Positions 1,459 to 40,054 of a stretch of DNA of 64,000 nucleotides are shown here, piece by piece (the stretch's first letter is position 1; each line of letters begins with the position of its first letter). Source of the stretch: an uncultured Pseudomonadales bacterium (GTDB lineage: Bacteria > Pseudomonadota > Gammaproteobacteria > Pseudomonadales > Pseudohongiellaceae); assembly GCA_964275945.1 (NCBI GenBank), contig CAXYEH010000021.1:3978-67977 (forward strand), read 5' to 3'. The notes beneath the pieces were generated by a model, which ran no database searches, was not told the origin of the DNA, and saw only the letters and a list, made by a program, of their open reading frames with translations. Both the position numbers and the translations under genes were made by a program.

Positions 1459-1518
1459 ACGCTCTTAACTAACGCAGCATTACTCTCAAGCCGACGCCGT
1501 CGCTGCACAGCTACGTGC

Positions 1519-2559
1519 CTAAAGTTCAGCCGCTTCCCGTTTTTCACGTTCCCGGCCGGCACTGAGTATATTGCGAATGGCTTGATTGCCCTCGTGACAG
1601 GCGTATTCATATATCACGTAATCCGGATCGTGGTTCAGCGGCATGGAAATCGTGAAAGGCTGAATATAAATATCCGGGTCGGTAATCGTCACTTCCCAGA
1701 TAATAGTACCCTCATCAATTCGCGTGAAACGCTCCACCAAGTGGAGATCTTCGGTAACTGACACGCCCCTGAGCCGACCGCCTGCGCCGCTATTTGCGAT
1801 CATTCCTCTGCCGTGAAAATTAGTTGTCTCTACGACCAGTGTGTTTCCTTCCCAACGCGCCACTGAGTCCCCCATCCACAACTTAATTCGCTCATCGTTA
1901 TGATCAGATTTATCCAGAGGAATAATGCGTACTTCATGAATCATTTCATGCATGATTGCGACATGGTCCGGTGTCTGAATTATGCGATAGGCATTGTTGT
2001 AGGCGGCTGGCAGCATTGCACCGGGCACGCCGCGGGTAATGCAGCGATCCCATGGCGTGAAATTTAGATAATCATCCTCCAGATGCTGCAAGCGGTATTC
2101 GCGAGCTTGCCATGCCGAATCCCTAAGCGGCGCGCGACCGTTTGGCGGATCGACTATCAGAGACGTCTGACGCGTTGACAGCAAAGCCTCACCCTGATCA
2201 AGCCAAATTGCACTATGGGCTCCAACATTCCCCCCCACAACAGGAACCGATACTTCCTCAACTATAGCCTCGACCGGCGCTGGCTCTGCGGCCGCTCGCA
2301 TAGCCTGAACATCCTCCTCTGTAAAAAAGGCCTTGTTTCCCAGCTCCACAGGCCGTTCCATCGGCGTGCGAGTTTCATTAGTCCAAAGGCCCTGCAGGTC
2401 CGGATCGCCCCAGGCAGTAGTCCCATCATAGCTTGTGTCGCCTGCGCCCTGCGCGTGCAAAGGGGCGATAGGAAGCAACGCAGAAAACAGTGTAATCACT
2501 AGTGTGCTAGCCGCTCGTCGTATGCCGAGCTCCGACACTTTAATCATTAAGGTTCTCAT
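1519..2559 (-). CDS. Exported hypothetical protein, 'ACHEGN'-motif family, paralog 1
   Basis: 346-aa ORF with a signal-like N-terminus (TLVITLFSALLPIAPLHAQG). It is the last gene of the minus-strand run 11167->1519, 32 nt after the PQQ gene. It is collinear with the 14618..15649 product (shared PD(L/F)xG, TPMxRP, VVETxN, VERFxR, YE(Y/F)ACHEGN). I cannot assign a family. Confidence 0.7.
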   Translation of the reverse strand: MRTLMIKVSELGIRRAASTLVITLFSALLPIAPLHAQGAGDTSYDGTTAWGDPDLQGLWTNETRTPMERPVELGNKAFFTEEDVQAMRAAAEPAPVEAIVEEVSVPVVGGNVGAHSAIWLDQGEALLSTRQTSLIVDPPNGRAPLRDSAWQAREYRLQHLEDDYLNFTPWDRCITRGVPGAMLPAAYNNAYRIIQTPDHVAIMHEMIHEVRIIPLDKSDHNDERIKLWMGDSVARWEGNTLVVETTNFHGRGMIANSGAGGRLRGVSVTEDLHLVERFTRIDEGTIIWEVTITDPDIYIQPFTISMPLNHDPDYVIYEYACHEGNQAIRNILSAGREREKREAAEL

Positions 2560-2591
2560 ATAATCTCTTGTTTACATTTAGGCTATTAATT

Positions 2592-4541
2592 TTATTGCGG
2601 TAATGCGAAGGTAAAAATTTTCGCATCATTGAAACGGCCACCGGATATGGAGATGTGCTGTCTGCCATCAGCTAGGTAACTCATTACCGGGCCGTGCAAG
2701 CGAACATCCACGAGTACTTCCCCGACTTTTTCACCTGTCTCCTTGTTAAATGCAACCAAGATCGATCCATCTGCATCCGGATCAATCTCGTCTTTCTGCG
2801 CCAGATGAGTAATCAACAGAGTCTTGGTGACTAGGATGCCGCCCTCGGCTGAGTAGTCGCTAAACGAGCTACCGAGATCCGGTAAGTTGAGGTGCGCTAG
2901 CGCAGGATGGTTCGCTGGCCCTCTACCGAGAGGAGTTTTCCATACGTGTTCACCAGTGTTGAGGTCAATCGCGGTAATGCGCCTATAGGGTGGTTTTACC
3001 AGGGGCAATCCCATAGGACCAACGTTACGCTGTACACGGATAACATAGGGCCAGTCCGCTTCAGTGTCATTTGGTGGCACCAATGACATTGCATAAGGAC
3101 GCGTTTGAGAGGGCACATAGAGAATATTAGTCTCGGGGTCGATGTTGGCGCCAGGGAAGCTAGCACCGCCACCTGCGCCTGGCATGAAGATAGTCGCCTC
3201 CTTGCCATCGGTGCCTTCCACAATCGGTGGCGTGAATATCGGACCCATCACATATTTCTTTGCCAGCTCTTTCGCTGCGGCGGCTATTTCCGGCGTGAAA
3301 TCGATCAGATCTGCTTCACTCATCCCCTGCTTCTCAAATGGCAGTGGCCAAGTTGGATGTGGCTGAGTCGGATGGGCGCGCTCACCAGGCACATTGCTCG
3401 GCGGCACGGGAAGTTCCTCTATTGGCCACACAGGCTCACCGGTAATGCGGTCGAACACATAGGTGAAACCGGTCTTGGACACCTGAGCTACCGCCTTGAT
3501 GGGACGGCCATCAACCACGATGTCGACCAGATTGGGAGCCGAGGCAATGTCGTAATCCCAAAGGCCATGGTGCACCGTCTGAAAATGCCAGATGCGCTCA
3601 CCCGTCTCTGCATCCACGGCGACCAGTGATTCAGCAAACAGGTTTTCACCGAGGCGGGTGCCGCCCCAGTAATCATTAGTAGGGGTAGCAATAGGTAGAT
3701 AAACAATGCCCGCCTCATCATCAGCCGACATGAAGGTCCACACGTTGGTGTTCCCCATCTTGCGCCAGGAATCATTTTCCCACGTCTCGGTGAAATCATC
3801 GCCCTGCTGGGGAATCGTGTTGAAACGCCATTTGAATTGGCCGGTGTAGGCGTCATACGCACGGACATGACCGGGAGGATTGCGATTGAACTCCGTATAG
3901 TCGAATAGAGAGGAGCCAACGATAACTGAGCTGCCCACAGCGATCGGAGGTGAGCCATGGGTGATATTATCTAAATTAAATTCGTCTGTGCTCTTGCCGA
4001 AATCACCGCGCAAGTCCGCAAAGCCATTATCACCGAAATTCTTATCCGGCAGACCGGTTTTGATATCGATGCTAACCAGTTGCTTACCGCGCGTCGCAAT
4101 AAATATGCGTTCAATCTCGCCGTCAGTCCAGTATTCGATGCCTCGAGTTGAACTAGCACCCCTCCCTACGGTTAGTTGATAACTTTCAGGGTCGAAAACC
4201 CATAATTCTCTGCCACTTACTGGATCCAGTGCCGCTACTTGCCCAAGACTCGTATTGGTATACATGACCCCATTCACGAGAAGAGGGGTCGCGCGGTAGG
4301 GGCTAGTGTTAGAGGCCAACGAGCGAGGAATTCTGGCATCTGCCGACTGCCAATCCCACGCGACTTCCAAATCTGCGAAGTTGCTCGAATCAATTTGGTC
4401 TAAGGGTGAATATTTGGCAGAGAAATGATTGCCACCAGCATGATGCCACTCACCGAACGGAGCACTCGTCTGCTCAGGCTGCGGTGCACAGGCACCTGAT
4501 AAAAGTGCAACTGCGAGTAGGACAGAATAAGAGCGAATCAT
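2592..4541 (-). CDS. PQQ-dependent dehydrogenase (quinoprotein, glucose/quinate-like beta-propeller), lipoprotein
   Basis: The ORF track gives 2592..4796, but an internal ATG at 4541 is preceded by GGAGGA 7 nt upstream and opens a lipobox leader MIRSYSVLLAVALLSGAC. The N-terminal quinoprotein signature is GGNHFSAKYSPLDQIDSSNFADLEVAWDW. W-rich propeller repeats and HHGLWDYD are also present. Confidence 0.85.
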   Translation of the reverse strand: MIRSYSVLLAVALLSGACAPQPEQTSAPFGEWHHAGGNHFSAKYSPLDQIDSSNFADLEVAWDWQSADARIPRSLASNTSPYRATPLLVNGVMYTNTSLGQVAALDPVSGRELWVFDPESYQLTVGRGASSTRGIEYWTDGEIERIFIATRGKQLVSIDIKTGLPDKNFGDNGFADLRGDFGKSTDEFNLDNITHGSPPIAVGSSVIVGSSLFDYTEFNRNPPGHVRAYDAYTGQFKWRFNTIPQQGDDFTETWENDSWRKMGNTNVWTFMSADDEAGIVYLPIATPTNDYWGGTRLGENLFAESLVAVDAETGERIWHFQTVHHGLWDYDIASAPNLVDIVVDGRPIKAVAQVSKTGFTYVFDRITGEPVWPIEELPVPPSNVPGERAHPTQPHPTWPLPFEKQGMSEADLIDFTPEIAAAAKELAKKYVMGPIFTPPIVEGTDGKEATIFMPGAGGGASFPGANIDPETNILYVPSQTRPYAMSLVPPNDTEADWPYVIRVQRNVGPMGLPLVKPPYRRITAIDLNTGEHVWKTPLGRGPANHPALAHLNLPDLGSSFSDYSAEGGILVTKTLLITHLAQKDEIDPDADGSILVAFNKETGEKVGEVLVDVRLHGPVMSYLADGRQHISISGGRFNDAKIFTFALPQ

Positions 4542-4566
4542 AAGCCTGTCCTCCATAGATCGTTTA

Positions 4567-5823
4567 TTATGACCAGCGCAGCGCCTTACTGCCTTGACCA
4601 AACGCATCCACCTCAAGGCCCATCGATTGCAATAGAGTGACGAAGAGATCAGACAATGGCGCATCTTGCTCTTGCGTATTCGCAATGTGCTTGCCGTGCG
4701 CAAAACCGCCGCCTGCAACAAGAATAGGGAGCTGCTTGGAGGAATGGGAGGCTGCATTACCAAGATTACTGCCAAACAAGACTGCCGTCTCGTCAAGAAT
4801 CGAACCCCCAGCGAGGCTGGGCTGCTGAAGTTCTGTTAGCAGATTACCAAAACGGTTAATGATCTCTGTTTCGATAATCTTAAGCTGGGCTATATTAGTC
4901 GCATCCTGACCGTGATGGGAAAGCCCGTGCTGGTCTTTGGATACACCCGCAATTTGCGGCACTACACCATGGTCGTGAATCATCAGACTGACAACGCGAG
5001 AAGAATCGGTCTGGAGAATAAGCGGAATAAGGTTGAGCATGAGCTCGATACGGCCGATGAGGTCAGTATTGTCCGGAATGTCAACTGGAGACTCCTGACC
5101 AACCTCTGGCTTGGGACGATTCGTCCAAGCTTGTACCTCGGTAAGTTGATTCTCTGCCGCGCGCACCGCCTCGAAATGAGCGTTGAGCTTGTGCTTATCA
5201 GAAGCGCTGACTTGCTTACCAAGTCGTCGCCCCTCCTCCAGCAAATGGTCGAGGATACTTCCGCCGTCATTCAAACTCTGAGTTTCGCGCCTGATTTCCT
5301 CTGCGCTACCTCGCAGAAATAGTTTTTTGAACACTCCCGCTGGGCTTGATTCGGCCGGGACCATTACACCGTTCGCAGTGTAGGACTGGCTTTGCGGACT
5401 CGTTGTGCCGAGCACAATTGACGGGAATCGAGTCTCATAACCAATATGATTGGCAGCCGCCTGGTCCATGGAAATGGTATTTTGGAAACCATCCAAACCC
5501 GGATGCCTTGCCGAGGTCAGCCAGGTAATCTCTGAGTTGTGTGCTTGCCGGCCATTTTGCGCCTCGTGTGAGAGTCCAGAAAAGACCGTATACTGACTGC
5601 GGTGATGATCGATCAGCTTAAGATATTCTGTCGCTTCATAGTCTGCCCCATCATTTTTCGGCAACCACGAGGGCGTGTATAAACCCAGCGTGCAACCGAT
5701 GTTCACCATCCGCCTGATTTGCGCCGCGCCGTAAGCGGGCATCACCTCGAGATATGGTAGAGCGAGCGCCACACCGGATGCTCGCAACAGAGTGCGTCGA
5801 CTTATCTTATTGCCTTTTTTCAT
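4567..5823 (-). CDS. DUF1552-type protein with twin-arginine signal
   Basis: 418 aa with Tat-like leader MKKGNKISRRTLLRASGVALALP. It starts 6 nt downstream of a DUF1592-type gene, the canonical DUF1592/DUF1552 pairing. The family assignment is from memory of the N-terminal pattern and the pairing. Confidence 0.75.
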   Translation of the reverse strand: MKKGNKISRRTLLRASGVALALPYLEVMPAYGAAQIRRMVNIGCTLGLYTPSWLPKNDGADYEATEYLKLIDHHRSQYTVFSGLSHEAQNGRQAHNSEITWLTSARHPGLDGFQNTISMDQAAANHIGYETRFPSIVLGTTSPQSQSYTANGVMVPAESSPAGVFKKLFLRGSAEEIRRETQSLNDGGSILDHLLEEGRRLGKQVSASDKHKLNAHFEAVRAAENQLTEVQAWTNRPKPEVGQESPVDIPDNTDLIGRIELMLNLIPLILQTDSSRVVSLMIHDHGVVPQIAGVSKDQHGLSHHGQDATNIAQLKIIETEIINRFGNLLTELQQPSLAGGSILDETAVLFGSNLGNAASHSSKQLPILVAGGGFAHGKHIANTQEQDAPLSDLFVTLLQSMGLEVDAFGQGSKALRWS

Positions 5824-8222
5824 ATTAGACTACCTCGTCCTAAACAGATCGCTTGCCACGACCTCGTGAATCATTGTACGCAATGCGTAATTTTGGTCCT
5901 TGGTCGAGCTGAGGATCTCGTTCACCGCATCCCGGTCGGAAAACTCGACCTGCGCCCCGGTGCTGAATGTTATGAGTTGGTCCGCGAGATTGTAAGAGAT
6001 CGCATCCATCTCATTGTCCAACAACACTTGTTGGTAATCGGCGAATCCGCGGAAAGACGCCCCGTCAGATGTAATGCCACTGGCATCCACCGGCAGCCCC
6101 AACTGATAAGGCGCATATTGCAGAATCTCAGAAAAAGCCCCGACAGCCCGGTACTGGTCGCGAAATCCTCCGATAGGATCGAACGATTCGAGCGCAAAGC
6201 CCGGTGGGTCGATGGTTTTATGACAACCCGCGCAGATGGTGCTGTCTCGATGCGCCGCCAGCTGTTCGCGAATCGTAGTCGTCCCGCGCGTGTCGGGCTC
6301 CACACCACCCACGTTCGGCGGCGGTGGCGGTGCTGGGCGGCCAAGCAAATTCGCAAGCACAAAATTGCCGCGCGGTATGGGCGACGTGGTCGTCCCGTTC
6401 GCCGTGATCTTATGGATACTGCCCTGACCCAACAAACCGCCTCGCACGCTGCCCTCTGGCAGCATCACTTTGCGCATCTGCTGTCCTTCGATACCCGGCA
6501 CGTTGTAATGCTCAGCTAGACGACGGTTCAGGAACGTAAAGTCCGCACGGACGAGGTTCGTCAAACTCAAGTTCTCGCGGATCAGCTCCTCATAAAAAAG
6601 CTCAGACTCCGCTATCATGGCCTGACCAAGGAGGTCGTTAAATTCGGGATACAGCCCCGTATCAGGCGAAGTTGAGTTGATCTCATAGAGTCGATAAGCC
6701 TGCCCCACGAAGTCCTTGACGAAGCGCTTACTTTTCGGATCATCGAGCATGCGCTCCACCTGACGTGCCAGCTCTGCAGGCTCGGACAAACGACCGGCTT
6801 CAGCGACGGCGAGAAGCGCATCGTCGGGCATACTGCGCCACAGAAAATACGACAGGCGCGAGGCCAGGCTGTAATCATCCAGAGCGCCGCTAGCACCGTC
6901 TTGGTAGAGAAATGACGGCGCATTCAAGACCGTTCTAAGTGGCACGCGCAGTGCCTCAAGAAAAGGTCTGCCGTCTTCTAGCAACGGTATCGCCATATCG
7001 GCGTACAACTTGGCTTCACCTTCGGTGAGCGGTCGACGGAAGGCACGCTGCGCGAACGTCTCGACAATCTCGTTGATGTGATCCATGGCCGGCTTGGAAA
7101 GTTTAATCTGGCCCGACTCGTCAAAATCGATGCCGGTCAAGAGCTCGCGAGTACTCGCTGGCGGCCACACGTCATTCAAAGGGCCTTCGATAACTAGCGA
7201 CTTCATCGCGATGCCCTCGCCCCTGTAATCAGTGACGAAGTTTTCAGGGAGATAATATATGCCGGGATTTTCCCCCCGGTAATCGACATCCGCCAGCGAG
7301 GGGGCCACTAACATACCGGGCTCCAGATAAGTGATCTCCTCGACAACACGACCTTCCGGCTCAACTAAATCGTAACTACCGATGAGATTATCAAGCGATG
7401 CGACAATGCCTTGCTTTTTACCGCTATACAAAGTCAAGATTACCGGTGAATCCGCCTGGTAGGGATAAGCATCGAGGGTGACCCGGTAGCGTCCTGGCGA
7501 CGGCACGTTGTAGCCCTCCGACTCAGTATAAAAGGCGTAGGTCGATACGGTATCAAAAAACGTAGCAACCCCGTCGTCGAGCAACTTGGTAACGCCGAGG
7601 CCGAAAACCTCCTGAGTACTCAGAGTATAAAGAAACGGCGACTTCCGATACTCAATTTCGAAACGCTCCGACTCAGGACGTGGACCGAGCTGGATTGCTG
7701 CATCCAGCGCTCTGTCAGCCGCGCGCAAGTAGCCACGCACGTGCAAGGACGAGATGTCCTGATTTTTAGCCACGGTATCGAAACCGCCTGTATCGGCGGC
7801 GGCGGGTAATTCCGAAGCCATAGCCGTCGCCGTCTCTGCATCGAGATGCAGAAGGTCTTGTAAGGAATAAGCATACTCAAGCTGAGTCAGCCTACGCAGC
7901 TCCGCTCGTGAGCCACCACGCGCGGCTATATTGGCATCAACTAAGGCAGGCTTGAGAGCGGCAAGCGCATTCTCAATCAGCGACTGAACCGTGTCTGTCA
8001 CCTCCATCGGGGGCATCTGACCACGCTCAATACGATTATAGATATGCTGCCAAGTGCGATAAACCTCGGCATCGCCAAGGTCATAGCTGAGTTCTTGCAT
8101 ATTAAGGGGAGTCACCGTGCCCTCGCCATGGCACAAAAGGCAAGATGCCTCCAGCATTGGCTCCACTTCAGCTTCGAAGGAATCGGCACTGGCGTGTCCG
8201 ACGACAAACATGGTGCAAACGA
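5784..8222 (-). repeat. Tandem duplication unit A (partner 8698..11145)
   Basis: 5784-7173 matches 8698-10087 at a constant offset of 2914 nt, near-identical. 7672-8222 matches 10595-11145 at an offset of 2923 nt. The central 7174-7671 is strongly diverged. Confidence 0.9.
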
Positions 8223-8244
8223 GCAAAGTTGTTAATTTATACAT
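5830..8244 (-). CDS. DUF1592/DUF1585/DUF1587/DUF1588/DUF1595-type (planctomycete PSD-domain) protein with two CxxCH motifs, copy A
   Basis: The start is set at MYKLTTLLVCTMFVVGHASA (residue 41 of the track ORF 5830..8364) by homology to the copy B start. CLLCH lies at 8128-8142 and CAGCHKTIDPPGFALESFDPIGGFR at about 6220-6234, the latter being the hallmark of the DUF1585 C-terminal domain. Confidence 0.85.
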   Translation of the reverse strand: MYKLTTLLVCTMFVVGHASADSFEAEVEPMLEASCLLCHGEGTVTPLNMQELSYDLGDAEVYRTWQHIYNRIERGQMPPMEVTDTVQSLIENALAALKPALVDANIAARGGSRAELRRLTQLEYAYSLQDLLHLDAETATAMASELPAAADTGGFDTVAKNQDISSLHVRGYLRAADRALDAAIQLGPRPESERFEIEYRKSPFLYTLSTQEVFGLGVTKLLDDGVATFFDTVSTYAFYTESEGYNVPSPGRYRVTLDAYPYQADSPVILTLYSGKKQGIVASLDNLIGSYDLVEPEGRVVEEITYLEPGMLVAPSLADVDYRGENPGIYYLPENFVTDYRGEGIAMKSLVIEGPLNDVWPPASTRELLTGIDFDESGQIKLSKPAMDHINEIVETFAQRAFRRPLTEGEAKLYADMAIPLLEDGRPFLEALRVPLRTVLNAPSFLYQDGASGALDDYSLASRLSYFLWRSMPDDALLAVAEAGRLSEPAELARQVERMLDDPKSKRFVKDFVGQAYRLYEINSTSPDTGLYPEFNDLLGQAMIAESELFYEELIRENLSLTNLVRADFTFLNRRLAEHYNVPGIEGQQMRKVMLPEGSVRGGLLGQGSIHKITANGTTTSPIPRGNFVLANLLGRPAPPPPPNVGGVEPDTRGTTTIREQLAAHRDSTICAGCHKTIDPPGFALESFDPIGGFRDQYRAVGAFSEILQYAPYQLGLPVDASGITSDGASFRGFADYQQVLLDNEMDAISYNLADQLITFSTGAQVEFSDRDAVNEILSSTKDQNYALRTMIHEVVASDLFRTR

Positions 8245-8540
8245 GTATCTAAGCTCCCTGTCTAAAGCTGCGACTAACCTATTATATCGAATTATTGCTA
8301 ATAATTTCCAGACGCCCGTTAAAGAAAAAAAACCCCTGAGATTTAAATATTCAAATAATATCAATTACTTAAAAGAAATTCCGAGGACAGAAATGTGATA
8401 GTTTGTGACTGACAATAATCAATCAGAACTAGGCGCCCTTCTGGCCTTTTAGACTCTTTTTTTTAAATTAAAGATTATTTCTTTAAATATATACGTTAAT
8501 TATTTACAAAAGGTTGCAAAATCTTTGGCTTTCCTACTTT

Positions 8541-8602
8541 GCAGCCTGATAAAGCTCGATCTCGTAGACGTTCAGATCGTTGAAGAAGAGGTTTACCAGC
8601 AC
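8541..8602 (-). repeat. 62-nt repeat S1 (partner 11274..11335), possible VOC-fold gene tail remnant
   Basis: gcagcctgataaagctcgatctcgtagacgttcagatcgttgaagaagaggtttaccagcac matches 11274-11335 at about 55/62 positions by eye. The minus-strand frame reads ...LVNLFFNDLNVYEIELYQAAK*. Confidence 0.7.
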
Positions 8603-8635
8603 GTTGTCGCCTTCCAGCTTTATTCTTATTCCTAG

Positions 8636-8737
8636 CTATGACCAGCGCAGCGTCTTGCTGCCTTGACCAAACGCATCCACCTCGAGGCCCATCGATTGCA
8701 ACAGGGTGCGTCGACTTATCTTATTGCCTTTTTTCAT
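8636..8737 (-). pseudogene. Internally deleted relic of a second DUF1552 gene (33 codons)
   Basis: It translates as MKKGNKISRRTLLQSMGLEVDAFGQGSKTLRWS*. That is the first 13 codons of 4567..5823 fused in frame to its last 20. The same 6-nt spacer (attaga) to the upstream DUF1592 stop is kept. Confidence 0.8.
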
Positions 8738-11167: not shown

Positions 11168-11273
11168 GAATCCAAGTTCCTATTTACAAAATCCTATTTA
11201 ATTGCTGCTATTGATCTACTATCTAGGTTCTACATTAGACGCAGCAATTCTCTTTCTTTGACTTTTCAACTTC

Positions 11274-11335
11274 GCCGCCTGATAAAGCTCGATCTCGTAG
11301 CCGTTCAGATCTTGGAAGAAGAGGATTACCGGCAC
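11274..11335 (-). repeat. 62-nt repeat S2 (partner 8541..8602)
   Basis: gccgcctgataaagctcgatctcgtagccgttcagatcttggaagaagaggattaccggcac. The minus frame reads ...ILFFQDLNGYEIELYQAAK... and is open only from about 11374. Confidence 0.7.
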
Positions 11336-11864
11336 AATGAGAATCCCTCCATTGGGGTGTTTTATTTTTTGCGGTCAATGTCGCCAGCATTGTATAGGCG
11401 GCAACCGCCAATAAAATAATGGCTTTAGTTTTTCTACCGCCGTGAGGCTCACGATCAATCATATCTTTTCTTTTAATTAGTAACCATGTGTGCAGATTAA
11501 CCTCTCAGTGAGGAACCATCCTCCGCTATTCCGTGAATGCCGACTAATTCTCAGTTTTTGACTTCAAAAAAGAAAGCTCGTTATAGAATAATTCCCGCCA
11601 GGATTCCTAAAATTAGAATTAGTAACTCAGAATTAAGCACACCTTTCTCAGCGCTTATTGCCTGAAAACCATTAAATCGTAATGCGCAAGTTTAGCCAAT
11701 CAGAAGTGGTCCATTTGGCGGCGAAAGAAACGATCACCCACGCTCAATAACTTCGCTAACTGTGACCCCTGACCCCAACCTAACTAGACAAGTCCCAACC
11801 ACAGAGATACTATCTTCGCCCACTTAAATATGCTCGTGGAGCATAATCCAATAGAGGAAGAGAC

Positions 11865-23816: not shown

Positions 23817-24431
23817 CTATCTGTATCTCCCTTGTTATTATTGCAACCTTTTTCAAATAATTAAGGTACATATGCTGGTACTTAATATCTTTTTCTTCAC
23901 ACTATCTAAAGTGAGTCATAGGCGTCAACCATCCAGTTGTGACTGTTTGTAATGTAGAGTTGCAAATAATGGGGCTATAGTTAAACGGCGAGTCTAATAT
24001 TGCATGGCACAAAGGCTTTAGGCACCTTTCAAAGTACTGGCAATGTTGTTCGCAGATGCGCAATATAACTTACGTTATATAGTAGCTTGCCTATGGGCCA
24101 GCCGTGCAGCTTGAGGATTAGAGAGCTAAGGATTCGGCACAAGCTAACCCCTGCACAATGCCACGAAAGCCAAATTAGTAGTCTCCATATTGCAAATAAT
24201 TGCCAATGTTCTGCCCCTAATTTCTCCCTTAGGGAAAAAATACCGAGATGTTATTCAAAATAAATCTAGGGCTTAGAACTAAGAGGTCCCGGGTATCTTT
24301 GTTTATTCAACCCATATCATACCTGCTCGAGGTGTCCCCATGGATCCCCTCTGTGCAACCTATATAGAATTTGATGAGCCCGGGTTAGCGGCTAGAAGCA
24401 AACAACTCTAGCAGCCTTAATCGGTAACTGA

Positions 24432-24698
24432 ACCTTATGTACTTCCTCATGGTGGCGCGAACTGTCGGCGAATACTTCGGTAGGAGGCAGTGGAAATATG
24501 GCTACCGCAGGTGATCTGGTTTTTCAGGGAACTGAAGGTAGCGGCTTCGATGCCTTACATGCAGAAAATGGAGAAACGCTCTTCCGCTATGAAGCCCTGA
24601 GAACCATTCATGCCAGCTCCTTAACTTATGAGGTCGATGGCAAGCAGTACGTGACTGTGGTGGCGACCAGCACTTTAATTACTCTAGCACTGCCGTAG
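24432..24698 (+). pseudogene. C-terminal fragment of a PQQ-dependent dehydrogenase (methanol/ethanol family), inverted relative to the intact copies
   Basis: The open frame from 24432 reads ...GGSGNMATAGDLVFQGTEGSGFDALHAENGETLFRYE...SLTYEVDGKQYVTVVAT...LALP*. It is collinear with the last ~85 aa of 27055..28908 (STGGGLVFGGDANGRFRAHDHETGEALWE...ITYAVDGKQYVAVNT...VFALP*). No upstream propeller is present. Confidence 0.75.
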
Positions 24699-24727
24699 CG
24701 GAACCTGCAGGTTCTCGACCACTAGTC

Positions 24728-25522
24728 TTATCGACGAACTACCTCGACGACGTTGCCGGACGGGTCATTTGCTAGGAACATACCGGAACCATACTCTTTA
24801 AGACCAAGGCCGCCAGCTTTTACCCGTTCAAGCACTACGTCGAACGCTGACGAATATATCGCGACCACGGGGTTCTCGCTCTTGGGGAGTGGCGCTTCGC
24901 CCTTAGGCTCGTATAGTGCGACGAACTTGCCATCACCAAAATCAAAGAAGACCTCATCGAAGCTCTCCGTCACGATGCGCCGTCCTGGCGTCACGTCGAA
25001 AACACGCACGAAGAATTCTTCCGCCGCCGCTCGGTCCGCGACTATCAGGCGGGCACCAGCCACCTTCGGGGGACCATCAACCTCAACGAGTTCAATCGTG
25101 TTGCCGCTCGGGTCGGTGGTGATTCCAATACGCACGCTATTGCCATCGCCGACGTCGACCGACATGATATTCAATGAGTGGTTTGCACTTTCCATTCGCG
25201 CAGCCACAGCGTCAATGTCGGGAATCATCACTACTGAAACTGGATGCGGGGTCTTCTCGATGTCTTCTATCTTGGCGTAGCCCAGCAGCCCGACACGCAT
25301 GATCCCGTCGCCAAATCCCATAAACGGCTCGGTGAGGCTGCCGGGGGCCTCAAATCGACCGACTTCTTCCATCCCCACTAGATCCTGATAGAACGCGACA
25401 GCAGCGTCGACATCGCTGACCGTGAACTTTGTCGTACGCAATTCGTGCGGCTGTGCCGAGGCGCTGAGGGTCAAGGTGACTGTCGCGATGCTACATAGAA
25501 TTATTGCTAGTGCTTTTTTCAT
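24728..25522 (-). CDS. Two-domain VOC-fold protein, exported
   Basis: Signal peptide MKKALAIILCSIATVTLTLSASAQP. TKFTVSDVDAAVAFYQDLVGM ... DPSGNTIELVE; RLIVADRAAAEEFF ... DPSGNVVEVV. It is a paralog of 16451..17254. Confidence 0.75.
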   Translation of the reverse strand: MKKALAIILCSIATVTLTLSASAQPHELRTTKFTVSDVDAAVAFYQDLVGMEEVGRFEAPGSLTEPFMGFGDGIMRVGLLGYAKIEDIEKTPHPVSVVMIPDIDAVAARMESANHSLNIMSVDVGDGNSVRIGITTDPSGNTIELVEVDGPPKVAGARLIVADRAAAEEFFVRVFDVTPGRRIVTESFDEVFFDFGDGKFVALYEPKGEAPLPKSENPVVAIYSSAFDVVLERVKAGGLGLKEYGSGMFLANDPSGNVVEVVRR

Positions 25523-25543
25523 GGCTTTTACTTTTAGTTTTTC

Positions 25544-25996
25544 TTAGCTAACTGGCTTAGCAGTGATCATGAGTTTGTCCAAGGCTTTCTCATCCGATTC
25601 CAACTCGGCGTCCCCTGCTGGAAACTCATTGGACTTCAGGATGAACGCTAAGATGTCCTCGTATGACCCTTTCGTTAGACTGCGCGGCTGATCCAAGGGC
25701 ATGTCGTTACGTATTTTTGAGTACAGTTCACCCAGAGATTTTCCTTCCCAAAGAAACATGAACCCCATACCCACCAAACCGGCTGCATGACTGTCCCCCC
25801 TGAGATTGGCCCCATGACAGCCCGCGCAGCTCACGCGATAGTCCTCGGCCCCTCGTTCAGCCTGAGCCTCGGTATAGGAACCGCTCCAGATCGACTCTGC
25901 TACCTGGGCATGAAGAGTCCATGGAACGAACAATGCAGCGACCGCAGCTAAATAGCTCAAGGCAATGACCATGTATCGTGATGAATGTTTCGTCAT
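25544..25996 (-). CDS. c-type cytochrome (monohaem), exported
   Basis: Signal/anchor region VIALSYLAAVAALFVPWTLHA and the haem motif CAGCH in YRVSCAGCHGANLRG. It is about 150 aa and sits near the PQQ dehydrogenase genes. Confidence 0.8.
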   Translation of the reverse strand: MTKHSSRYMVIALSYLAAVAALFVPWTLHAQVAESIWSGSYTEAQAERGAEDYRVSCAGCHGANLRGDSHAAGLVGMGFMFLWEGKSLGELYSKIRNDMPLDQPRSLTKGSYEDILAFILKSNEFPAGDAELESDEKALDKLMITAKPVS

Positions 25997-26298
25997 AATT
26001 TTTCTCCTGCTTCTATAATTCTAAAAGGCTCCCAGATTCTAGAGGCGACCCTGTCACATATTAACTCTGCGATCGCGACCATAACAAATCGGTTATGATC
26101 TGCTTTTCAGCCGTCACAGAATAGCCGAACGAAGCCTCAAGCTGTTGAGGAGTATACCTCCTTCTGTTCAGCGTCCAAGCTTGGCTATGTCGTTGCACCA
26201 ACATTGAAACTGTCTTAGCGCAACTATAGTCAATCCTAGATAAGAAATAGTGAGGATGATTTCTTGATGCTTTGTTATGAGGCAGCTTTAACTGGCCT

Positions 26299-26817
26299 CT
26301 ATTTGAGCTCGCTTTCGATCTGCGTAGGATCTACATCCCGAGGCGAGATCAGGAGCATCAGCGAACCAAGGAGAGCTGCAACGGTAAAAGCCATTCCAAA
26401 AATAACCTCGCTTACTACATTTGACCAAAGCGTTGGCCCCTCAGGTGTTACATAAATCTCACTCCATATCACCACGCCAAACAGCATTAGAATATCAAGA
26501 ATTCGGGCGCCGATGGTTATGACGGCCCATGCGCAGATCCAAGAATTATTTTTCCGAAAGTCGACACTCTTGCTGTTGGAAGACAGCCCGCACTGAATCG
26601 CGAAATAGAACGCCGCGATGAACCCCATAATGTCCAAAATCCACGCATTAATCCCCCAGTTAAAACCATCCACGACGCAGGTGACAACCACAGTTACCAA
26701 ATGTGTCACCACGAAACAGACCCCCAACAGAGCCGCAACGCCCAAAAATCGATGACCCGCAGTGAGCACAGGGGCTTGAAACAACCCGCTTATGCCAAAA
26801 ATTTTAAAATTAGTCAT
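26299..26817 (-). CDS. Hypothetical integral membrane protein
   Basis: 172-aa ORF with about 5 hydrophobic helices. I recognise no family, and coding status rests on ORF length and hydrophobic periodicity. Confidence 0.5.
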   Translation of the reverse strand: MTNFKIFGISGLFQAPVLTAGHRFLGVAALLGVCFVVTHLVTVVVTCVVDGFNWGINAWILDIMGFIAAFYFAIQCGLSSNSKSVDFRKNNSWICAWAVITIGARILDILMLFGVVIWSEIYVTPEGPTLWSNVVSEVIFGMAFTVAALLGSLMLLISPRDVDPTQIESELK

Positions 26818-27054
26818 GCAATATTTCCTAACTCATTAACTAATAATCTCGGTCGTGTAACGCCGAGCCCTTTTGATTTGTTTGTTATGTGCTTTTACAA
26901 AAAAAGAACAAAGGCTTCCGGTAGTTTGACGGGATTATCGTTTACAAGGATGTTGTGCAATCTCACTTAGAGTTGACCTGACGAGATTAACAACCCAGGA
27001 GACCCTCTACAGGAGGGTCCCCAGAAGACATAGATTCCGTCAGTGCCGCCTCAG

Positions 27055-28908
27055 CTAGGGTAATGCAAATACGAACAGGTTGGTTCCGCGGCTAGGCCTT
27101 AACTCGGGTGTCCCAATGCTACCTAACCAGGGCCCGGTATTTACCGCAACATACTGCTTCCCATCCACTGCATAAGTTATCGGGAAGCCGACTACCGGGG
27201 AGCCCAGGTTTATTTCCCAAAGGGCCTCACCGGTCTCATGATCGTGGGCCCGAAAGCGGCCGTTGGCATCTCCGCCGAATACCAGCCCGCCGCCTGTGGA
27301 CATCAGCGATGTAGTGCCGGCCCGTTGCTCATAAAGCCATTCGGTGCGGCCTGTTTCGGCATTGATTGCTCTTACGGTGCCCAAGTTGTCCGTGCCGGGT
27401 GCAATCCGATGCCTGCCCGCCAGTGAGTACAGAGCCAGGCCACCTCTGACAATCTCACGCTCGAGGTCGGTAGCCCTTTGCGTTTCGAAGTCAGCGGTGG
27501 CCATCATGTCGGCACAGGTGTTGCGCAACGGATAGTACATGGTATTGGTGAGTGGGCTGTAGGTACCCGTTTCCCAATTCTTGCCCCCAAGCCAGGTCGG
27601 ACAGACAAACACAATTTGTTCTGTCTCACGAAAAACCACCTCCGGATTTTCCGTCACCTCGCCAGTCACGCCGTCAATGTTCTGTATTATGTTCTGGAAT
27701 ACGGTAGGAGTTGCCCACAGGAACTCGCCGGTCTCTCGGTCCAGCGTGTACACCACGCCGGTCTTGCCGGGAATACCGGTGATGACCTTGCGAACTTCGC
27801 CAACCTTCAGATCAGGGTTAATCCACTCAACTTCGTCTGGATCGGGTGTCACTGAGGTGTCCACGAGCAGGCGCTCAAAAGGATGGTCCATATCCCAGTG
27901 ATCATTGAGATGCTGGTAGTACCAGCGTATCTCACCGGTATCTACCTCCAGCGCCAGGGTACTGTTGTGATACAAATACTTCTTATCAACGCCATCTAGA
28001 AAGATTTTCGGTGCCGGCGAGGTGACAGAAGTACCGAAGATAATCAGCTTCAGCTCCGGGTCGTAACTCGAAGGCGTCCAGGATCCTACTTGTTGACGCA
28101 GCTCGTAAGGCACGTCGCCCCAGGTCTCGTAACCCGGCTCTCCAGGGGCTGGAATCAATTGGCGGCGCCACAGCTCGGCGCCGGTACGGGCATCATGGGC
28201 GGCGACAAAGCAGGCATCGGGCCCACCTCCCGGATAACCAAGTGTCGACTTACAACTGCGACCAGAAATTACTCGACCATCGGCAATAATCGGCCCCGAA
28301 CTATGGGTGCCGGTATTGATCTTGTAGTCGGAAACCTGGGTTTCCCATACGATTTCGCCGGTTTGAGCATTCAGTGCGAACACAAAGCCTTCAGCGCTAG
28401 AGTCGATGATTAGGTTTTCGTAAATGGCTAGGTTGCGATTATTGCTACCATGAGGCCCAATCCACTGAGACAGATCATCAGGCAGGTCCCGTCGATATGC
28501 CCAGATCAAGTCGCCACTGACGGCATCGATGGCCTCGATCACATCATTGGCCTGCGGAACGTAGAGGAGGCCGTTATAGGCCAGCGGTGTAATTTCATCA
28601 GTAGCGGCGGCCAGGTTGCGAGTCCACACCATCCTCATCTGACCCACATTGTCACGGTTGACTTCAGCCAAGGGGCTGTAGCCCCAGCTATCAAGCGTGC
28701 GACGCCACATGAGCCAGTCGCTGGGAGCGGGGTCCTGTAACATGGCATCGGTAACGGGTGGAAAACTACCAGGTCCTTGGCCGTAACTGACCGGGCTGAG
28801 TAAAACCAGACTTGCCAGCAAGACAGCCAGAGTCGTTTGTACAGTCCGGACAAAAACACCGAGTGTGGTATGGGAGATAGCGGGGTAGGTAGATATCACG
28901 TTTTTCAT
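27055..28908 (-). CDS. PQQ-dependent dehydrogenase, methanol/ethanol (type I ADH-like) family, exported
   Basis: 617 aa. The N-terminal signature reads VTDAMLQDPAPSDWLMWRRTLDSWGYSPLAEVNRDNVGQMRMVW. Propeller W-motifs, NDHWDMDHP, and the C-terminal ITYAVDGKQYVAV block are present. Confidence 0.9.
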   Translation of the reverse strand: MKNVISTYPAISHTTLGVFVRTVQTTLAVLLASLVLLSPVSYGQGPGSFPPVTDAMLQDPAPSDWLMWRRTLDSWGYSPLAEVNRDNVGQMRMVWTRNLAAATDEITPLAYNGLLYVPQANDVIEAIDAVSGDLIWAYRRDLPDDLSQWIGPHGSNNRNLAIYENLIIDSSAEGFVFALNAQTGEIVWETQVSDYKINTGTHSSGPIIADGRVISGRSCKSTLGYPGGGPDACFVAAHDARTGAELWRRQLIPAPGEPGYETWGDVPYELRQQVGSWTPSSYDPELKLIIFGTSVTSPAPKIFLDGVDKKYLYHNSTLALEVDTGEIRWYYQHLNDHWDMDHPFERLLVDTSVTPDPDEVEWINPDLKVGEVRKVITGIPGKTGVVYTLDRETGEFLWATPTVFQNIIQNIDGVTGEVTENPEVVFRETEQIVFVCPTWLGGKNWETGTYSPLTNTMYYPLRNTCADMMATADFETQRATDLEREIVRGGLALYSLAGRHRIAPGTDNLGTVRAINAETGRTEWLYEQRAGTTSLMSTGGGLVFGGDANGRFRAHDHETGEALWEINLGSPVVGFPITYAVDGKQYVAVNTGPWLGSIGTPELRPSRGTNLFVFALP

Positions 28909-29016
28909 GGCTATGTCGTTATCGAAATTTGGATTGCAGCATTAGGGTGGTCCGCTTTGAACCGCCATGGGACGGAGCCCTAGTCGGGCTCCACTCTATG
29001 TACATCTTCGCTTCAG

Positions 29017-30862
29017 TTAGGGTAATGCAAAGATGAACAGGTTAGCGTTGCCGCTGGGCCTTATCTCGGGTGTGGCAACACCACCCAGTCCACGTCCGGT
29101 ATTTACCGCAACATACTGTTTTCCATCCACGGCATAGCTTATCGGGTAGCCGACTACTTCGGCGCCCAGATTTATTTCCCAGAGTATCTCACCGGTCTCA
29201 TCATCAAAGGCTCTAAAACGGCCGTTGATATCGCCACCGAATACCAGCCTTCCGCCGGTGGCTACCATAGGATACCGTGCCAGCGCGCTGTTCATATAGC
29301 CACTCAGTGCGACCAGTCTCGGCATTGATCGCTCTTACCGTGCCCGAGTTGGTCTCGCCGGGGGTCATTCGAGCTCTGGCCGCCAGTGAGTAGATGGACT
29401 GGGCGCCGTCGATAATGTCACGCGCGAGTTCGGTATCATTGGTCGTCTTGAGGTCAGCGGTGGCCATCATGTCGGCACAGGTGTTGCGCACCCCATAATA
29501 CATGTTATTGGTGAGTGGGCTGTAGGCGCCTGCTTCCCAATCCCTGCCCCCGAGCAAGTGCGGACAGACCATCACAATCTGTTCGTTTTCGCGAAAGATC
29601 ACTTCCTCGTTGAGTACCACCTCGCCAGTGGCGCCGTCAATATTCGAGATAACGTTTTGAAATGTGGTAGGGGTTGCCCACAGGAACTCACCGGTCTCTC
29701 GGTCCAGTGTGTAAACTATGCCGGTCTTGCCGGGAATGCCGGTGATAACCTTGCGAACTTCGCCAGCCTCCAAATTTGGATTTATCCACTCAACTTCGTC
29801 TGGATCGGGAGCCACTGCAGTGTCCACCAACAGCCGCTCAAAAGGATGATCCAAATCCCAGTGGTCATTGAGGTGCTGGTAGTACCAGCGTATCTCACCG
29901 GTTTCAAGCTCCAGTGCCAGAGTGCTGTTGTGATAAAGATGATCGTTCTCGACGCCACCTAAAAAGAATTTCGGTGCGGGAGAAGTCACAGAGGTGCCTA
30001 TGATAATCAGCTCCAGCTCCGGATCGTAGCTGGCAGGCATCCACGAACCCACGTGTTGGCGCTGCTCGTAAGGCACGTCGCCCCAGGTCTCGTAACCCGG
30101 CTCTCCAGGCTTTGGAATCAACTGGCGGCGCCAAAGCTCAACGCCGGTAAGGGCATCATGGGCGGCGACAAAGCAGGCTTCGGGTCCACCTCCTGGATAA
30201 GTAGGTTTCGATCGACAACTGCGACCGGAAATAACCCGACCGTCGGCAATAATCGGCCCCGCACTATGGGTGCCGGTATTGACCTTGTAATCGAAAACTT
30301 GGGTTTCCCAAACGGTTTCGCCGGTTTGGGCATCCAGCGCAAACACGAAGCCGTCATCGCTGGTGTTGATGATCAGATTCCCAAAGATTGCTAGGTTGCG
30401 ATTGTTGCGGGCATTAACACCCACGTAGTCATAAAGGCCTTCCGGATGGTCGCGGCCGTATTCCCAGATCTGGTCGCCAGTGCGGGCATCGATGGCCTCG
30501 ATAACATCATTATGCTGCGGAACGTAGAGCACGCCATCATAGGCCAGCGGCGTAATTTCTCCAGTACCGGTGCCCAAGCCGTGGGTCCATACCATCCTCA
30601 ACTGATCCACATTGTCGCGGTTGACTTCAGCCAAGGGGCTATAGCCCCAGCTATCAAGCGTACGACGCCACATCAGCCAGTCGCTGGGAGCAGGGTCCTG
30701 TAGCATGGCATCAGTAACCGGTGGAAAGCTGTCGCTACCCTGACCGTAAGTGAATGGGCTAATTAACACTGTGCTTACCAGCAAGACAGCAAATATGGTT
30801 TGGACAGTCCGGGAAAAAATACCGACTGTGGTTTGACGGATAGCAGAGTAAACAGATGTCAT
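29017..30862 (-). pseudogene. PQQ-dependent dehydrogenase paralog interrupted by one frameshift near 29270
   Basis: Track ORFs 29213..30862 and 29017..29325 together are collinear with 27055..28908. The frame changes between ...WLYEQRAGTVS and MVATGGRLVFGGDINGRF (GGC ACG GTA TCC T|ATG GTA GCC). The intact copy reads AGTTSLMSTGGGLVF, so the lesion looks like a 2-nt loss or 1-nt gain. Confidence 0.8.
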
Positions 30863-31188
30863 GGTTTTATTCTTCTCACAATTTGATTGACAGGTATTAT
30901 TAACGACTCAGGAACTTACAATTATTCTAATGAAATTTAAATAACACTTGACGAATTTGGATAACATCGCGTCAATTATAAAGCGTTATATGGTAATAAA
31001 TTGTAACGAAGCACATGCAATTTTTTCTCCGATGAGCAATACCCCAGGGGGGAGCCAAGCAGTTATAACCTATCATGTTATTCAACTAGTTAGAATTTTC
31101 CCCTACTTTCAAATTCCATTGCACACCCATCACACACTTTTGGTATTTTTCTGAGCCTGATGCTCGTGCGCAAAGAACTGAATTTGAA

Positions 31189-31437
31189 ATGGCAAAACGA
31201 GTATTTTTTAGCTTTCACTCCAAACACGTATGAAAAGTGAACCAAATTCGAAGGGTGCCACATATTACAGACACAACAGCCGCTGGCTTTCAAGATGCCT
31301 CTCTTTTGGAAGCTGCAAAAAAGAGAAGCGATAGAGAAATTAAAAATATGGTCGATAGGGAACTCGAAAACACGAGTGTTACTGTTGTATTTAAGGGTGT
31401 AGCAATACTTCGTTGGACGAAAATAAACGCTAATTAA
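31189..31437 (+). pseudogene. Relic of a TIR-like (DUF1863 / ThsB-like) domain gene with an in-frame TGA and C-terminal truncation
   Basis: ATG 31189 opens MAKRVFFSFHSKHV, followed by TGA (31231-31233) and then, in the same frame, KVNQIRRVPHITDTTAAGFQDASLLEAAKKRSDREIKNMVDRELENTSVTVVF.... The FFSFH...VNQ(V/I)R...GF.DAS...SVTVV pattern matches my memory of the family. Confidence 0.55.
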
Positions 31438-31503
31438 AGATATATATTATCAATTAGTTATAAAACTCTATCGGACTTTGCTGGACACTACTAGACTTGA
31501 GTT

Positions 31504-40039: not shown

Positions 40040-40054
40040 TACAGGGAAAACGAG

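Follow-up and report, generated by a model that had tools for sequence, protein, structure and literature searches.

Pyrroloquinoline quinone (PQQ) dehydrogenases of the lanthanide type are reported to be widespread in the ocean and hugely expanded in UBA9145, where fifteen Pseudomonadales metagenome-assembled genomes (MAGs) carry up to 70 such genes per genome (PMC11996626). The glucose-dehydrogenase-like (GDH-like) and sorbose-dehydrogenase-like (SDH-like) enzymes of the marine survey nearly all bear a W-D-x-D motif, and the structure closest to the SDH model was PDB entry 4cvb (PMC11996626). How such expansions arise and what works together with the enzymes has not been described. Here we analysed a stretch of 64,000 nucleotides from an uncultured Pseudomonadales bacterium (assembly GCA_964275945.1, contig CAXYEH010000021.1, positions 3,978 to 67,977; hereafter the window), in which a GC-rich block close to a tRNA-Arg(TCG) gene encodes three PQQ dehydrogenases (PQQ1, PQQ3 and PQQ4) among 17 exported or membrane proteins (Table 1). 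The block is a real genomic island at an integration hotspot. We consider it probable that the island was acquired horizontally, is flexible and rapidly rearranging, and is a mosaic of at least four modules of periplasmic oxidation that broadens the substrate range rather than forming one pathway. The locus would then present one unit of expansion in action: foreign cassettes for exported proteins only, free of regulators, that undergo shuffling, duplication and decay across strains of 91-98% identity.

The window resembles the published expansions in UBA9145 and Acidobacteria (ISME J 2025, PMC11996626) in the presence of SDH-like and GDH-like clades, the D-x-D motif and many paralogues; the likeness to UBA9145 is drawn at the level of the family, Pseudohongiellaceae. 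In the literature UBA9145 is a genus of this family, listed as a clade apart from OM182, and our literature search returned no paper joining OM182 with PQQ. The published catalogue, unlike the present locus, describes no islands, horizontal origin, accessory genes or all-exported context. The original prediction for this DNA, made from the sequence before any database search, had put the system forward as a candidate undescribed one; that description fits the island context and does not fit the enzymes, as PQQ expansions in the genus UBA9145 are already published there. With respect to its dehydrogenases the island is therefore one more example of something already published, and it would enlarge the large PQQ-dehydrogenase repertoire reported from a genus of Pseudohongiellaceae.

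Other described systems share parts of the arrangement. The ped, exa and xox clusters (Pseudomonas putida PedE/PedH-PedF; methylotroph XoxF-XoxG-XoxJ) also have a PQQ dehydrogenase of the periplasm that is served by its own cytochrome c, and contain redundant paralogues, and in the ped cluster an exported metallo-beta-lactamase (MBL)-fold, SoxH-like hydrolase, PP_2678, accompanies the PQQ alcohol dehydrogenases (PMC12997753). In contrast to these clusters, the island has no genes for regulators, PQQ biosynthesis, an aldehyde dehydrogenase, an ABC importer or SoxYZ/rhodanese proteins, and its dehydrogenases belong to other clades, the vicinal Cys-Cys being absent from PQQ1, PQQ3 and PQQ4. Its two MBL-fold proteins reach 50-65 bits as against 280-300: TIGR04558 and TIGR04559 (quinoprotein relay zinc metallohydrolases, SoxH-like; cut-offs 300 and 280) are the best or near-best families for both, at scores far under threshold (50 and 42 bits for MBL1, 65 and 55 bits for MBL2). 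A second likeness is to the PSCyt3 and DUF1552 proteins of Planctomycetes and Verrucomicrobia, a conserved pair with 'nothing known' on its function (PMC5615132). The literature that we found on DUF1552 and DUF1592 holds passing mentions only, without function. The PSD3-PSD5-PSD4-PSCyt3-PSD2 architecture of the island proteins is identical to that of these pairs, with all five Pfam domains above their cut-offs in both DUF1592 copies, and the DUF1552 gene is likewise adjacent, 6 nucleotides from DUF1592. Here, unlike there, the pair is found in a gammaproteobacterium, in a foreign island and directly upstream of a GDH-like PQQ dehydrogenase, as in a second locus described below (L040). Finally, on the plasmids pABRDHK22 of Novosphingobium sp. 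EMRT-2 and pSRL1 of Sphingobium indicum B90A a TonB-dependent receptor lies by a PQQ1-like enzyme, PQQ dehydrogenases are paired with cytochromes c, and a gluconolactonase and an amidohydrolase are near. These plasmid loci show only 40-42% identity, include cytoplasmic enzymes and regulators, and have no gene of the 'ACHEGN' protein family defined below.

The GC content in 2-kb windows was 0.47-0.57 across ~1.5-31 kb and 0.41-0.47 across 31-64 kb, and the tetranucleotide correlation to window positions 32-64 kb, used as the reference, was 0.09-0.47 within the block and 0.87-0.92 beyond it. Open reading frames (ORFs) of the island (n = 17) showed a GC content of 0.535 ± 0.024 and a third-codon-position GC content (GC3) of 0.584 ± 0.048, compared with 0.439 ± 0.019 and 0.399 ± 0.031 for the flanking ORFs (n = 26), so that the per-gene distributions barely overlap (Mann-Whitney p = 6e-8). 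The sharp shift in composition claimed by the original prediction was thus borne out by sliding-window GC, GC3 and tetranucleotides; uniform composition, which it had named as the result that would speak against it, is not what the computed values gave. We considered whether the block might not be foreign at all, with its GC excess arising from amino-acid or codon preferences of exported proteins, or from a mis-assembled or mis-binned contig. All of its genes encode exported proteins, whose composition can differ, and the source appears to be an uncultured population represented by metagenome assemblies only. However, the gap is greatest at third codon positions (0.58 vs 0.40), exported proteins of the flank (DUF5916, LolA-like, OEP, M16) have host-like GC3, both junctions are spanned by independent assemblies from different samples, and the site is empty in a relative (L016). 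These observations already largely refute such an explanation, which we regard as hardly credible.

The edges of the block had been predicted at the stop codon of an ABC-2 permease gene and at the 3' end of the tRNA. On the left this agrees with a GC step at ~1350-1500, coincident with the stop codons of the permease (1458) and of unkA (1519). At the right edge the GC-rich DNA stops short of the tRNA, ending at the start of PQQ4 (30862); the intervening 640 bp (30863-31503) are AT-rich (0.34-0.41) and contain the relic of a TIR-domain gene. This relic suggests that an older, defence-type element once held the junction. A segment of ~250 bp comprising the 5' part of the relic (31044-31294) is deleted in L001 and L021; the junction is decaying in different ways among strains of 94-96% identity.

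The DUF5916 gene on the far side of the tRNA is 98% identical at the amino-acid level to that of OM182 bacterium MED-G28, and its matches in a number of MAGs of Pseudohongiellaceae and Pseudohongiella are at 63-90%; the window genome belongs to OM182/Pseudohongiellaceae. Nearly all of these relatives have tRNA-Arg(TCG) downstream of the gene, and many of their contigs break just past the tRNA. The tRNA of L016 (host GC 0.44; DUF5916 71% identical) matches at 100%, and 62 bp further on comes an HbpS-like gene region that in MED-G28 sits past the island and the ABC-2 ATPase/permease pair. Because the tRNA there leads straight to the far-flank HbpS region, L016 represents an empty site. As L016 is also without the ABC-2 pair, the variable segment exceeds the GC-rich block, and the stop codon of the permease is not the left synteny boundary that it had been taken for. 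The junction between the tRNA and PQQ4 is spanned in L001 (MED-G28) and L021, both of 94-96% nucleotide identity, and the junction between unkA and the ABC-2 gene in L022 (MED-G28). At the same tRNA we found three different low-GC elements in other Pseudohongiellaceae genomes, one with a tyrosine integrase and a Rep_trans initiator (L006, 15844-20254), one with a reverse transcriptase (L011, 20355-21545) and one with a DEAD/ResIII helicase (L013, 19845-21956), which makes tRNA-Arg(TCG) a hotspot. The claim of a foreign block at a tRNA integration site therefore stands on the composition, the empty site and the varied elements at this tRNA; the block is not part of a core genome, being absent from the site in L016 and present, rearranged, only in close relatives.

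The island thus shares with tRNA-linked integrative elements a location at a tRNA 3' end, foreign composition, presence/absence polymorphism and the occurrence of integrase-bearing elements at the same tRNA elsewhere. It differs from them in that no integrase, att repeats or mobility genes were found and that the cargo lies 640 bp off, behind the decayed TIR-like gene. Neither the ORFs nor the relics of the window included an integrase or recombinase gene. A search for repeats of the tRNA 3' end, confined to the window while the distal synteny boundary falls outside it, gave nothing beyond 12-13 nucleotides (32 nucleotides with up to 3 mismatches; blastn-short of the tRNA and its flanks against 1-31440). 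There was no plasmid nucleotide match to 24.5 kb of the island, the sole Rfam match in the window was the tRNA, and promoter and terminator scans gave counts no greater than those in shuffled sequence. The HbpS-like proteins of L016 (12781-13257) and L022 (MED-G28, 13390-13866) are 94% identical, though the DUF5916 proteins, on the other side of the tRNA, are only 71% identical, which points either to recombination at the edge of the island or to an unusually high conservation there.

We group the genes of the island into four putative modules. Module R would consist of the SDH-like pair PQQ4 (frameshifted here) and PQQ3 along with the small membrane protein unkC, the cytochrome c and the exported VOC2; module L of the di-haem PSCyt3/DUF1592 protein (duplicated here), the Tat-exported DUF1552 protein, the GDH-like PQQ1 and the 'ACHEGN' protein unkA; module H of unkB, which is the other 'ACHEGN' protein, the amidohydrolase lipoprotein and the hydrolase MBL1; and module T of the TonB-dependent receptor, the AtoE-like carrier, MBL2 and VOC1. 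The gene order of the window was reproduced in eight independent assemblies (L032-L039), which vary in DUF1592 copy number (one or two) and some of which have split genes; the identical unkB protein was present on 27 contigs. In MED-G28 the order is unkB, MBL2-VOC1, MBL1, DUF1592-DUF1552-PQQ1-unkA, with a single DUF1592 gene; the interval from VOC1 to MBL1, which in the window is occupied by unkB and the amidohydrolase, contains no amidohydrolase there. A sister population with 91-95% nucleotide identity (L023-L028) has no TonB receptor, AtoE, MBL2 or VOC1, and its genes follow in the order unkB, amidohydrolase, MBL1, an intact gene for a 164-residue VOC protein (VOC164), DUF1592, DUF1552, PQQ1, unkA, a PQQ4-like gene, an unkB-like gene, PQQ, another 'ACHEGN' gene, PQQ3, unkC, cytochrome c and VOC2. 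The cluster of L025 ends at a poly(A) polymerase (pcnB) gene of GC 0.47-0.48 (20200-21029) and not at tRNA-Arg, which places the same gene set at another chromosomal position or in another host. Yet another combination of genes was seen in L029 (77-86% identity). The four modules are kept, lost, duplicated and reordered independently of one another.

The same comparison bears on the proposal, contained in the original prediction, that the block is one coherent catabolic pathway for a single substrate, which would enter through the TonB receptor, be oxidised by PQQ enzymes and cleaved by the MBL, amidohydrolase and VOC proteins, the acids being taken up by AtoE. Every product of the island is exported and all genes but two are co-oriented, the full order of the window is stable over the eight assemblies of the population, and the combination of TonB-dependent receptor, PQQ dehydrogenase, cytochrome c and lactonase or amidohydrolase recurs in L040, in L041 and on the Novosphingobium and Sphingobium plasmids, so the underlying logic of receptor, dehydrogenase and cytochrome c does hold in unrelated genomes. 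Against a single pathway, the sister population retains modules L, H and R without the receptor-AtoE-MBL2-VOC1 set and with extra PQQ/'ACHEGN' pairs, the order in MED-G28 differs, a regulator is absent from the island, and the two to four paralogues of most functions, the relics and the frameshift suit interchangeable modules better. Independent behaviour of the modules disfavours a single tuned pathway, which we judge unlikely, and fits a toolbox of cassettes for periplasmic oxidation and hydrolysis.

The description of the block as partly decaying and still evolving was confirmed at several points. The two DUF1592 copies are 91% identical at the amino-acid level and in part of their DNA at 100%, the duplication has a period of 2914 nucleotides, and their copy number is polymorphic (two in L033; one in L034, L032, L038, L022 and L023). 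Several gene relics lie between the intact genes (Table 1), gene order depends on the strain, and PQQ4 is split by an insertion of 1 nucleotide relative to three relatives, the gene being intact in L021, L023 and L025. In two long-read metagenome contigs further genes are split, the TonB receptor into two ORFs in L033 (1835-5197) and DUF1592 in L035 (14483-16907); the splits may reflect true pseudogenes or errors of long reads at low coverage. The contig of L035, 367 kb in length, terminates within the DUF1592 duplication. A 33-nucleotide inverted match (88% complementary) connects 8487-8519 and 23841-23873, just upstream of DUF1592a and of the TonB receptor. Its core, the 12-mer TTGCAACCTTTT, occurs at these two sites only, and 4 of 100 shuffled sequences reach two matches. 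The match may be a shared operator or a recombination scar and is left here without explanation.

To classify the dehydrogenases we compared them with Pfam, NCBIfam and solved structures. PQQ1 covers all 595 positions of the PF01011 propeller model and scores 364 bits against TIGR03074, the membrane-bound glucose/quinate dehydrogenases (cut-off 833), over model positions 147-764 only. Its N-terminus, MIRSYSVLLAVALLSGAC, is signal-peptide-like, with a Cys directly past the hydrophobic stretch and no multi-helix anchor, and is possibly a lipoprotein signal. PQQ3 and PQQ4 match PF01011 with E = 5e-56 and E = 5.8e-50 and align end to end with 4cvb (Pseudogluconobacter PQQ alcohol dehydrogenase), the best PDB match of PQQ3, and with 4mh1 (Ketogulonicigenium sorbose dehydrogenase). 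Scores against TIGR03075, the methanol/ethanol family (cut-off 480), were 314 bits for PQQ3, 239 for PQQ4 and 191 for PQQ1, so these proteins are relatives and not members; all three stay below the curated cut-offs of every named NCBIfam family. The lanthanide motif is defined by a second Asp two residues past the catalytic Asp (W-D-x-D), which predicts lanthanide dependence. It is present in PQQ1 (WDYD), PQQ3 (WDMD) and PQQ4 (WDLD), compared with WDSE at this place in the calcium enzyme 4cvb, and in every homologue checked in L023, L029, L040 and L041. Judged by this motif, all three enzymes are probably lanthanide-using. Of the four PQQ dehydrogenases counted originally three are genes and the fourth is only a relic of 66 residues, and the W-D-x-D motif of the three had been overlooked.

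Two further proteins of the island, unkA and unkB, belong to a family that has no Pfam or NCBIfam model and that we define in this analysis by a length of ~330-350 amino acids, a signal peptide and two motifs without variation, R-C and A-C-H-E-G-N; both proteins have these traits. Each has at least ~7,500-8,000 homologues, and a profile search of 1.84 billion representatives (clusters at 50% identity) retrieved 22,196 clusters with a threshold of E ≤ 1e-3, or 9,716 when it was set at E ≤ 1e-10. A first AlphaFold model of unkA, built from 19 sequences, had a pLDDT of 58 and no Foldseek match at E ≤ 1e-3. The second model (AF2, 58 sequences) reached a pLDDT of 70 and a pTM of 0.73; its C-terminal half resembles FABP/CRABP barrels (Foldseek E ~2e-4, TM ~0.5 to the target), and the conserved Cys/His motifs lie in its low-confidence segments. 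From this model we tentatively propose a FABP/calycin-like C-terminal beta-barrel in unkA.

Two types of fusion protein link the 'ACHEGN' family with enzymes. In the first (984-1018 amino acids; three full-length members on contigs of up to 324 kb) a PQQ1-like propeller, whose first ~630 residues are 53% identical to PQQ1 and include WDWD, is joined to an unkB-like domain without a signal peptide of its own. The second (622 amino acids; 14 cluster members, contigs up to 650 kb) joins an 'ACHEGN' domain with an SMP-30/gluconolactonase domain. The first fusion lies in L040 (GC 0.685) in the order PQQ, sulfatase, PQQ::ACHEGN, DUF1552, DUF1592, PQQ, TonB-dependent receptor, where all PQQ genes bear D-x-D; the second lies in L041 in the order TonB-dependent receptor, MFS carrier, ACHEGN::lactonase, cytochrome c, quinohaemoprotein PQQ alcohol dehydrogenase, so that this dehydrogenase gene is two genes downstream of the fusion. 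The combination of module L thus recurs in an unrelated lineage, L040, which is independent evidence of functional coupling. Taken as sequence evidence, the fusions and neighbourhoods indicate that the 'ACHEGN' family is functionally coupled to PQQ1-like dehydrogenases.

Whether 'ACHEGN' proteins are dedicated periplasmic partners of the lanthanide-type GDH-like PQQ enzymes, with PSCyt3/DUF1592-DUF1552 as the haem redox module of the same system, is a narrower proposal, which we put forward as possible and on balance doubtful. Such a partner could handle a substrate or lactone in its FABP-like barrel, or metal or electrons through the invariant Cys/His/Glu cluster. The proposal makes both families testable partners, 'ACHEGN' through fusion and neighbourhood in a 68%-GC genome and PSCyt3/DUF1552 through that neighbourhood. 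If it is true, it would place two very large families without a known function in a functional context for the first time and establish a novel kind of periplasmic system for sugar/alcohol oxidation that has spread horizontally among marine bacteria, and it could clarify how oligotrophic bacteria exploit dissolved sugars and alcohols as a periplasmic source of energy. Other relatives of the family were also seen. The 'ACHEGN' gene is divergent from a Fer2_2 and molybdopterin aldehyde-oxidase-type pair in two genomes of GC 0.69, L044 (5059-9035) and L045 (5066-9029), and in L030 it follows the gene of a 467-residue cytochrome c protein with a weak Cu2_monoox_C match. Apparent fusions to DUF3089 (alpha/beta-hydrolase-like) and to a squalene-hopene-cyclase-C-like repeat domain (P0332 and P0272) are single-member clusters, each seen once, and a gene-calling artefact is possible. 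The hypothetical gene after the Novosphingobium PQQ1 homologue was considered as a relative of the family and rejected (hhalign probability 0.2).

The D-x-D motif in three of three dehydrogenases also raises the question of whether the island serves to acquire lanthanides, the TonB receptor importing a lanthanide chelate and the 'ACHEGN', DUF1552 and MBL proteins handling the metal for the dehydrogenases. Lanthanide uptake is expected to proceed via TonB-dependent transporters (PMC11996626), and the Cys/His/Glu cluster that is invariant in 'ACHEGN' sequences could bind metal. The receptor of the island, however, belongs to TIGR01782 (TonB-Xanth-Caul). TonB-Xanth-Caul receptors are associated with carbohydrate and nutrient scavenging loci and not with receptors of the siderophore type. 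Moreover, the island has no genes for chelator biosynthesis, a periplasmic binding protein or a lut/ped-type ABC importer, the sister population has the dehydrogenases without the receptor, and 'ACHEGN' proteins are also fused to a gluconolactonase and adjoin Mo-oxidoreductases. We therefore consider this role very improbable. The ABC-2 permease at the left edge was examined as a PedC-type lanthanide/alcohol transporter and ruled out (31 bits, cut-off 241).

Starting from the parts list, motifs, fusions and neighbourhoods observed, we infer the following working of the flexible, modular island. The substrates would be sugars, polyols and other alcohols of dissolved organic matter, the larger ones entering via the TonB receptor. 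The PQQ enzymes, with lanthanide use predicted, would oxidise them in the periplasm and pass electrons to cytochrome c and perhaps also to the di-haem DUF1592 proteins. The 'ACHEGN' proteins might assist the GDH-like enzyme, the lactonase fusion hinting at a handling of aldonolactones, while the MBL, amidohydrolase and VOC proteins would process the products and AtoE would import small acids.

A number of observations weigh against this reading as a whole or in part. Neither an integrase nor a tRNA-end repeat nor a plasmid match accounts for the arrival of the DNA, and the left synteny boundary lies beyond the window and takes in the host-like ABC-2 pair, which would require two events or a loss in L016. 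The closest non-self homologues are 77-86% identical and lie on contigs of 52-54% GC. The PQQ4 insertion could be either a genuine frameshift or an artefact of assembly. The D-x-D motif predicts lanthanide use and does not prove it, and the window contains no genes for PQQ biosynthesis or lanthanide uptake. For the MBL, VOC and amidohydrolase proteins no match to a characterised subfamily passes the cut-off, which leaves the downstream chemistry as guesswork. Distant 'ACHEGN' genes, finally, lie beside Mo-oxidoreductases (L044, L045), a Zn-dependent alcohol dehydrogenase (L043), a xylose-isomerase-like TIM-barrel gene (L007) or an unannotated ORF (L031); since these members have other neighbours, the partnership with PQQ enzymes is not exclusive, and periplasmic oxidoreductases of several kinds may have partners in the family.

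Table 1. Features of the island and its edges (window coordinates)
Feature	Position	Strand	Evidence and remarks
ABC-2 permease, host-like composition	346..1458	+	Pfam ABC2_membrane_3 E = 1.1e-41; GC3 0.45
GC-rich, compositionally foreign block (island proper)	1459..30862		GC, GC3, tetranucleotides; same tRNA site empty in L016
unkA, exported 'ACHEGN' family member	1519..2547	-	Invariant R-C ... A-C-H-E-G-N; no Pfam/NCBIfam match
PQQ1, exported glucose-dehydrogenase-like PQQ dehydrogenase, W-D-Y-D, without membrane anchor	2592..4541	-	PF01011 E = 2.8e-177
DUF1552 (HXXSHH) protein, twin-arginine signal	4567..5823	-	PF07586 E = 2.8e-68, 231 bits; SRRTLLR motif
DUF1592a, PSD3-PSD5-PSD4-PSCyt3-PSD2, two CxxCH (CLLCH, CAGCH), tandem copy A	5830..8244	-	Pfam
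Relics between DUF1592 copies: VOC164 C-terminus (8537-8620); first ~20 and last ~23 codons of DUF1552 (8639-8743)	8537..8743	-	tblastn, ORFs of relatives against window gaps
DUF1592b, same architecture, tandem copy B	8744..11167	-	Pfam
Relic of 164-residue exported VOC gene, N- and C-terminal fragments only	11270..11389	-	Intact in L023-L028
MBL1, exported metallo-beta-lactamase-fold hydrolase, HxHxDH intact (HYHYDH)	11865..12830	+	PF00753
Amidohydrolase lipoprotein, Cc2672/prolidase/molinate-hydrolase group	12930..14291	-	PF01979; lipobox LTGC; PDB 3mtw E = 4.4e-24; solved-structure matches confined to this broad group
unkB, second 'ACHEGN' member, 33% identical to unkA	14618..15649	-	R-C and A-C-H-E-G-N motifs; identical protein on 27 contigs
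DUF2058 relic, 55 codons, in 800-bp gap (15.65-16.45 kb)	~15788..15955	+	Called in L032, L035, L038; coordinates inferred by offset, exact match in window not found
VOC1, exported two-domain glyoxalase/dioxygenase-superfamily protein	16451..17254	-	PF00903, PF13669
MBL2, exported MBL-fold hydrolase, HHHYDH	17451..18356	-	Solved-structure matches to generic MBLs only
AtoE-like short-chain fatty acid transporter, start probably 18723	18612..20138	+	PF02667 E = 8e-116; 471 aa in most relatives
TonB-dependent receptor, TonB-Xanth-Caul subfamily	20454..23774	-	TIGR01782 585.6 bits, cut-off 310; PF07715 plug and PF00593 barrel
Relic, C-terminus of fourth PQQ dehydrogenase, 66 aa, opposite strand	24498..24698	+	tblastn; PF01011 positions 543-595 E = 2.7e-6
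VOC2, exported two-domain VOC protein, 53% identical to VOC1	24728..25522	-	Pfam
Cytochrome c, exported, mono-haem (CAGCH)	25544..25996	-	PF13442
unkC, small membrane protein, four hydrophobic segments	26299..26817	-	No Pfam/NCBIfam match
PQQ3, sorbose-dehydrogenase/Pseudogluconobacter alcohol-dehydrogenase-like PQQ dehydrogenase, W-D-M-D	27055..28908	-	PDB 4cvb E = 2.8e-122, full length
PQQ4, PQQ3 paralogue (76% amino-acid identity), W-D-L-D, frameshift near 29261-29268	29020..30862	-	PF01011
ThsB-type TIR-domain gene relic, in-frame stop, AT-rich junction	31189..31437	+	Pfam ThsB_TIR E = 1.3e-7
tRNA-Arg(TCG), integration hotspot in Pseudohongiellaceae	31504..31580	-	Other elements at this tRNA in L006, L011, L013

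Inspection of the N-termini revealed an export or membrane signal in all 17 ORFs of the island, including the Tat motif SRRTLL in DUF1552, the lipobox of the amidohydrolase and the membrane segments of unkC (four) and AtoE (eight). By a crude signal script 15 of the 17 island ORFs were flagged, the two others being missed on account of start-codon choice, as were 16 of the 26 in the flank. The contrast between island and flank (17/17 vs 15/26, Fisher p = 0.0014) is real but milder than the predicted all-exported content would imply, because the flank is itself rich in envelope proteins. Searches of Pfam and NCBIfam gave no transcription factor, integrase or evident cytoplasmic enzyme in the island, as had been predicted. 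The redundancy of its content was also borne out, with two DUF1592-type, two MBL, two two-domain VOC and two 'ACHEGN' proteins. The solved-structure search returned no relative of DUF1552, and the PDB sequence search none of VOC1. The order PQQ-unkC-cytochrome c-VOC2 is kept in L021 and L025, and the cytochrome c is the likely electron acceptor of PQQ3 and PQQ4.

Outside the island, positions 39377-45090 of the window hold a conserved-looking envelope cluster with a TetR regulator, an MMPL/RND-like transporter, a LolA-like/DUF1329 protein and a DUF1302 protein. The transporter is encoded by two overlapping ORFs (40055-41521 and 41505-42758), which may represent either a frameshift or a genuine two-gene arrangement.

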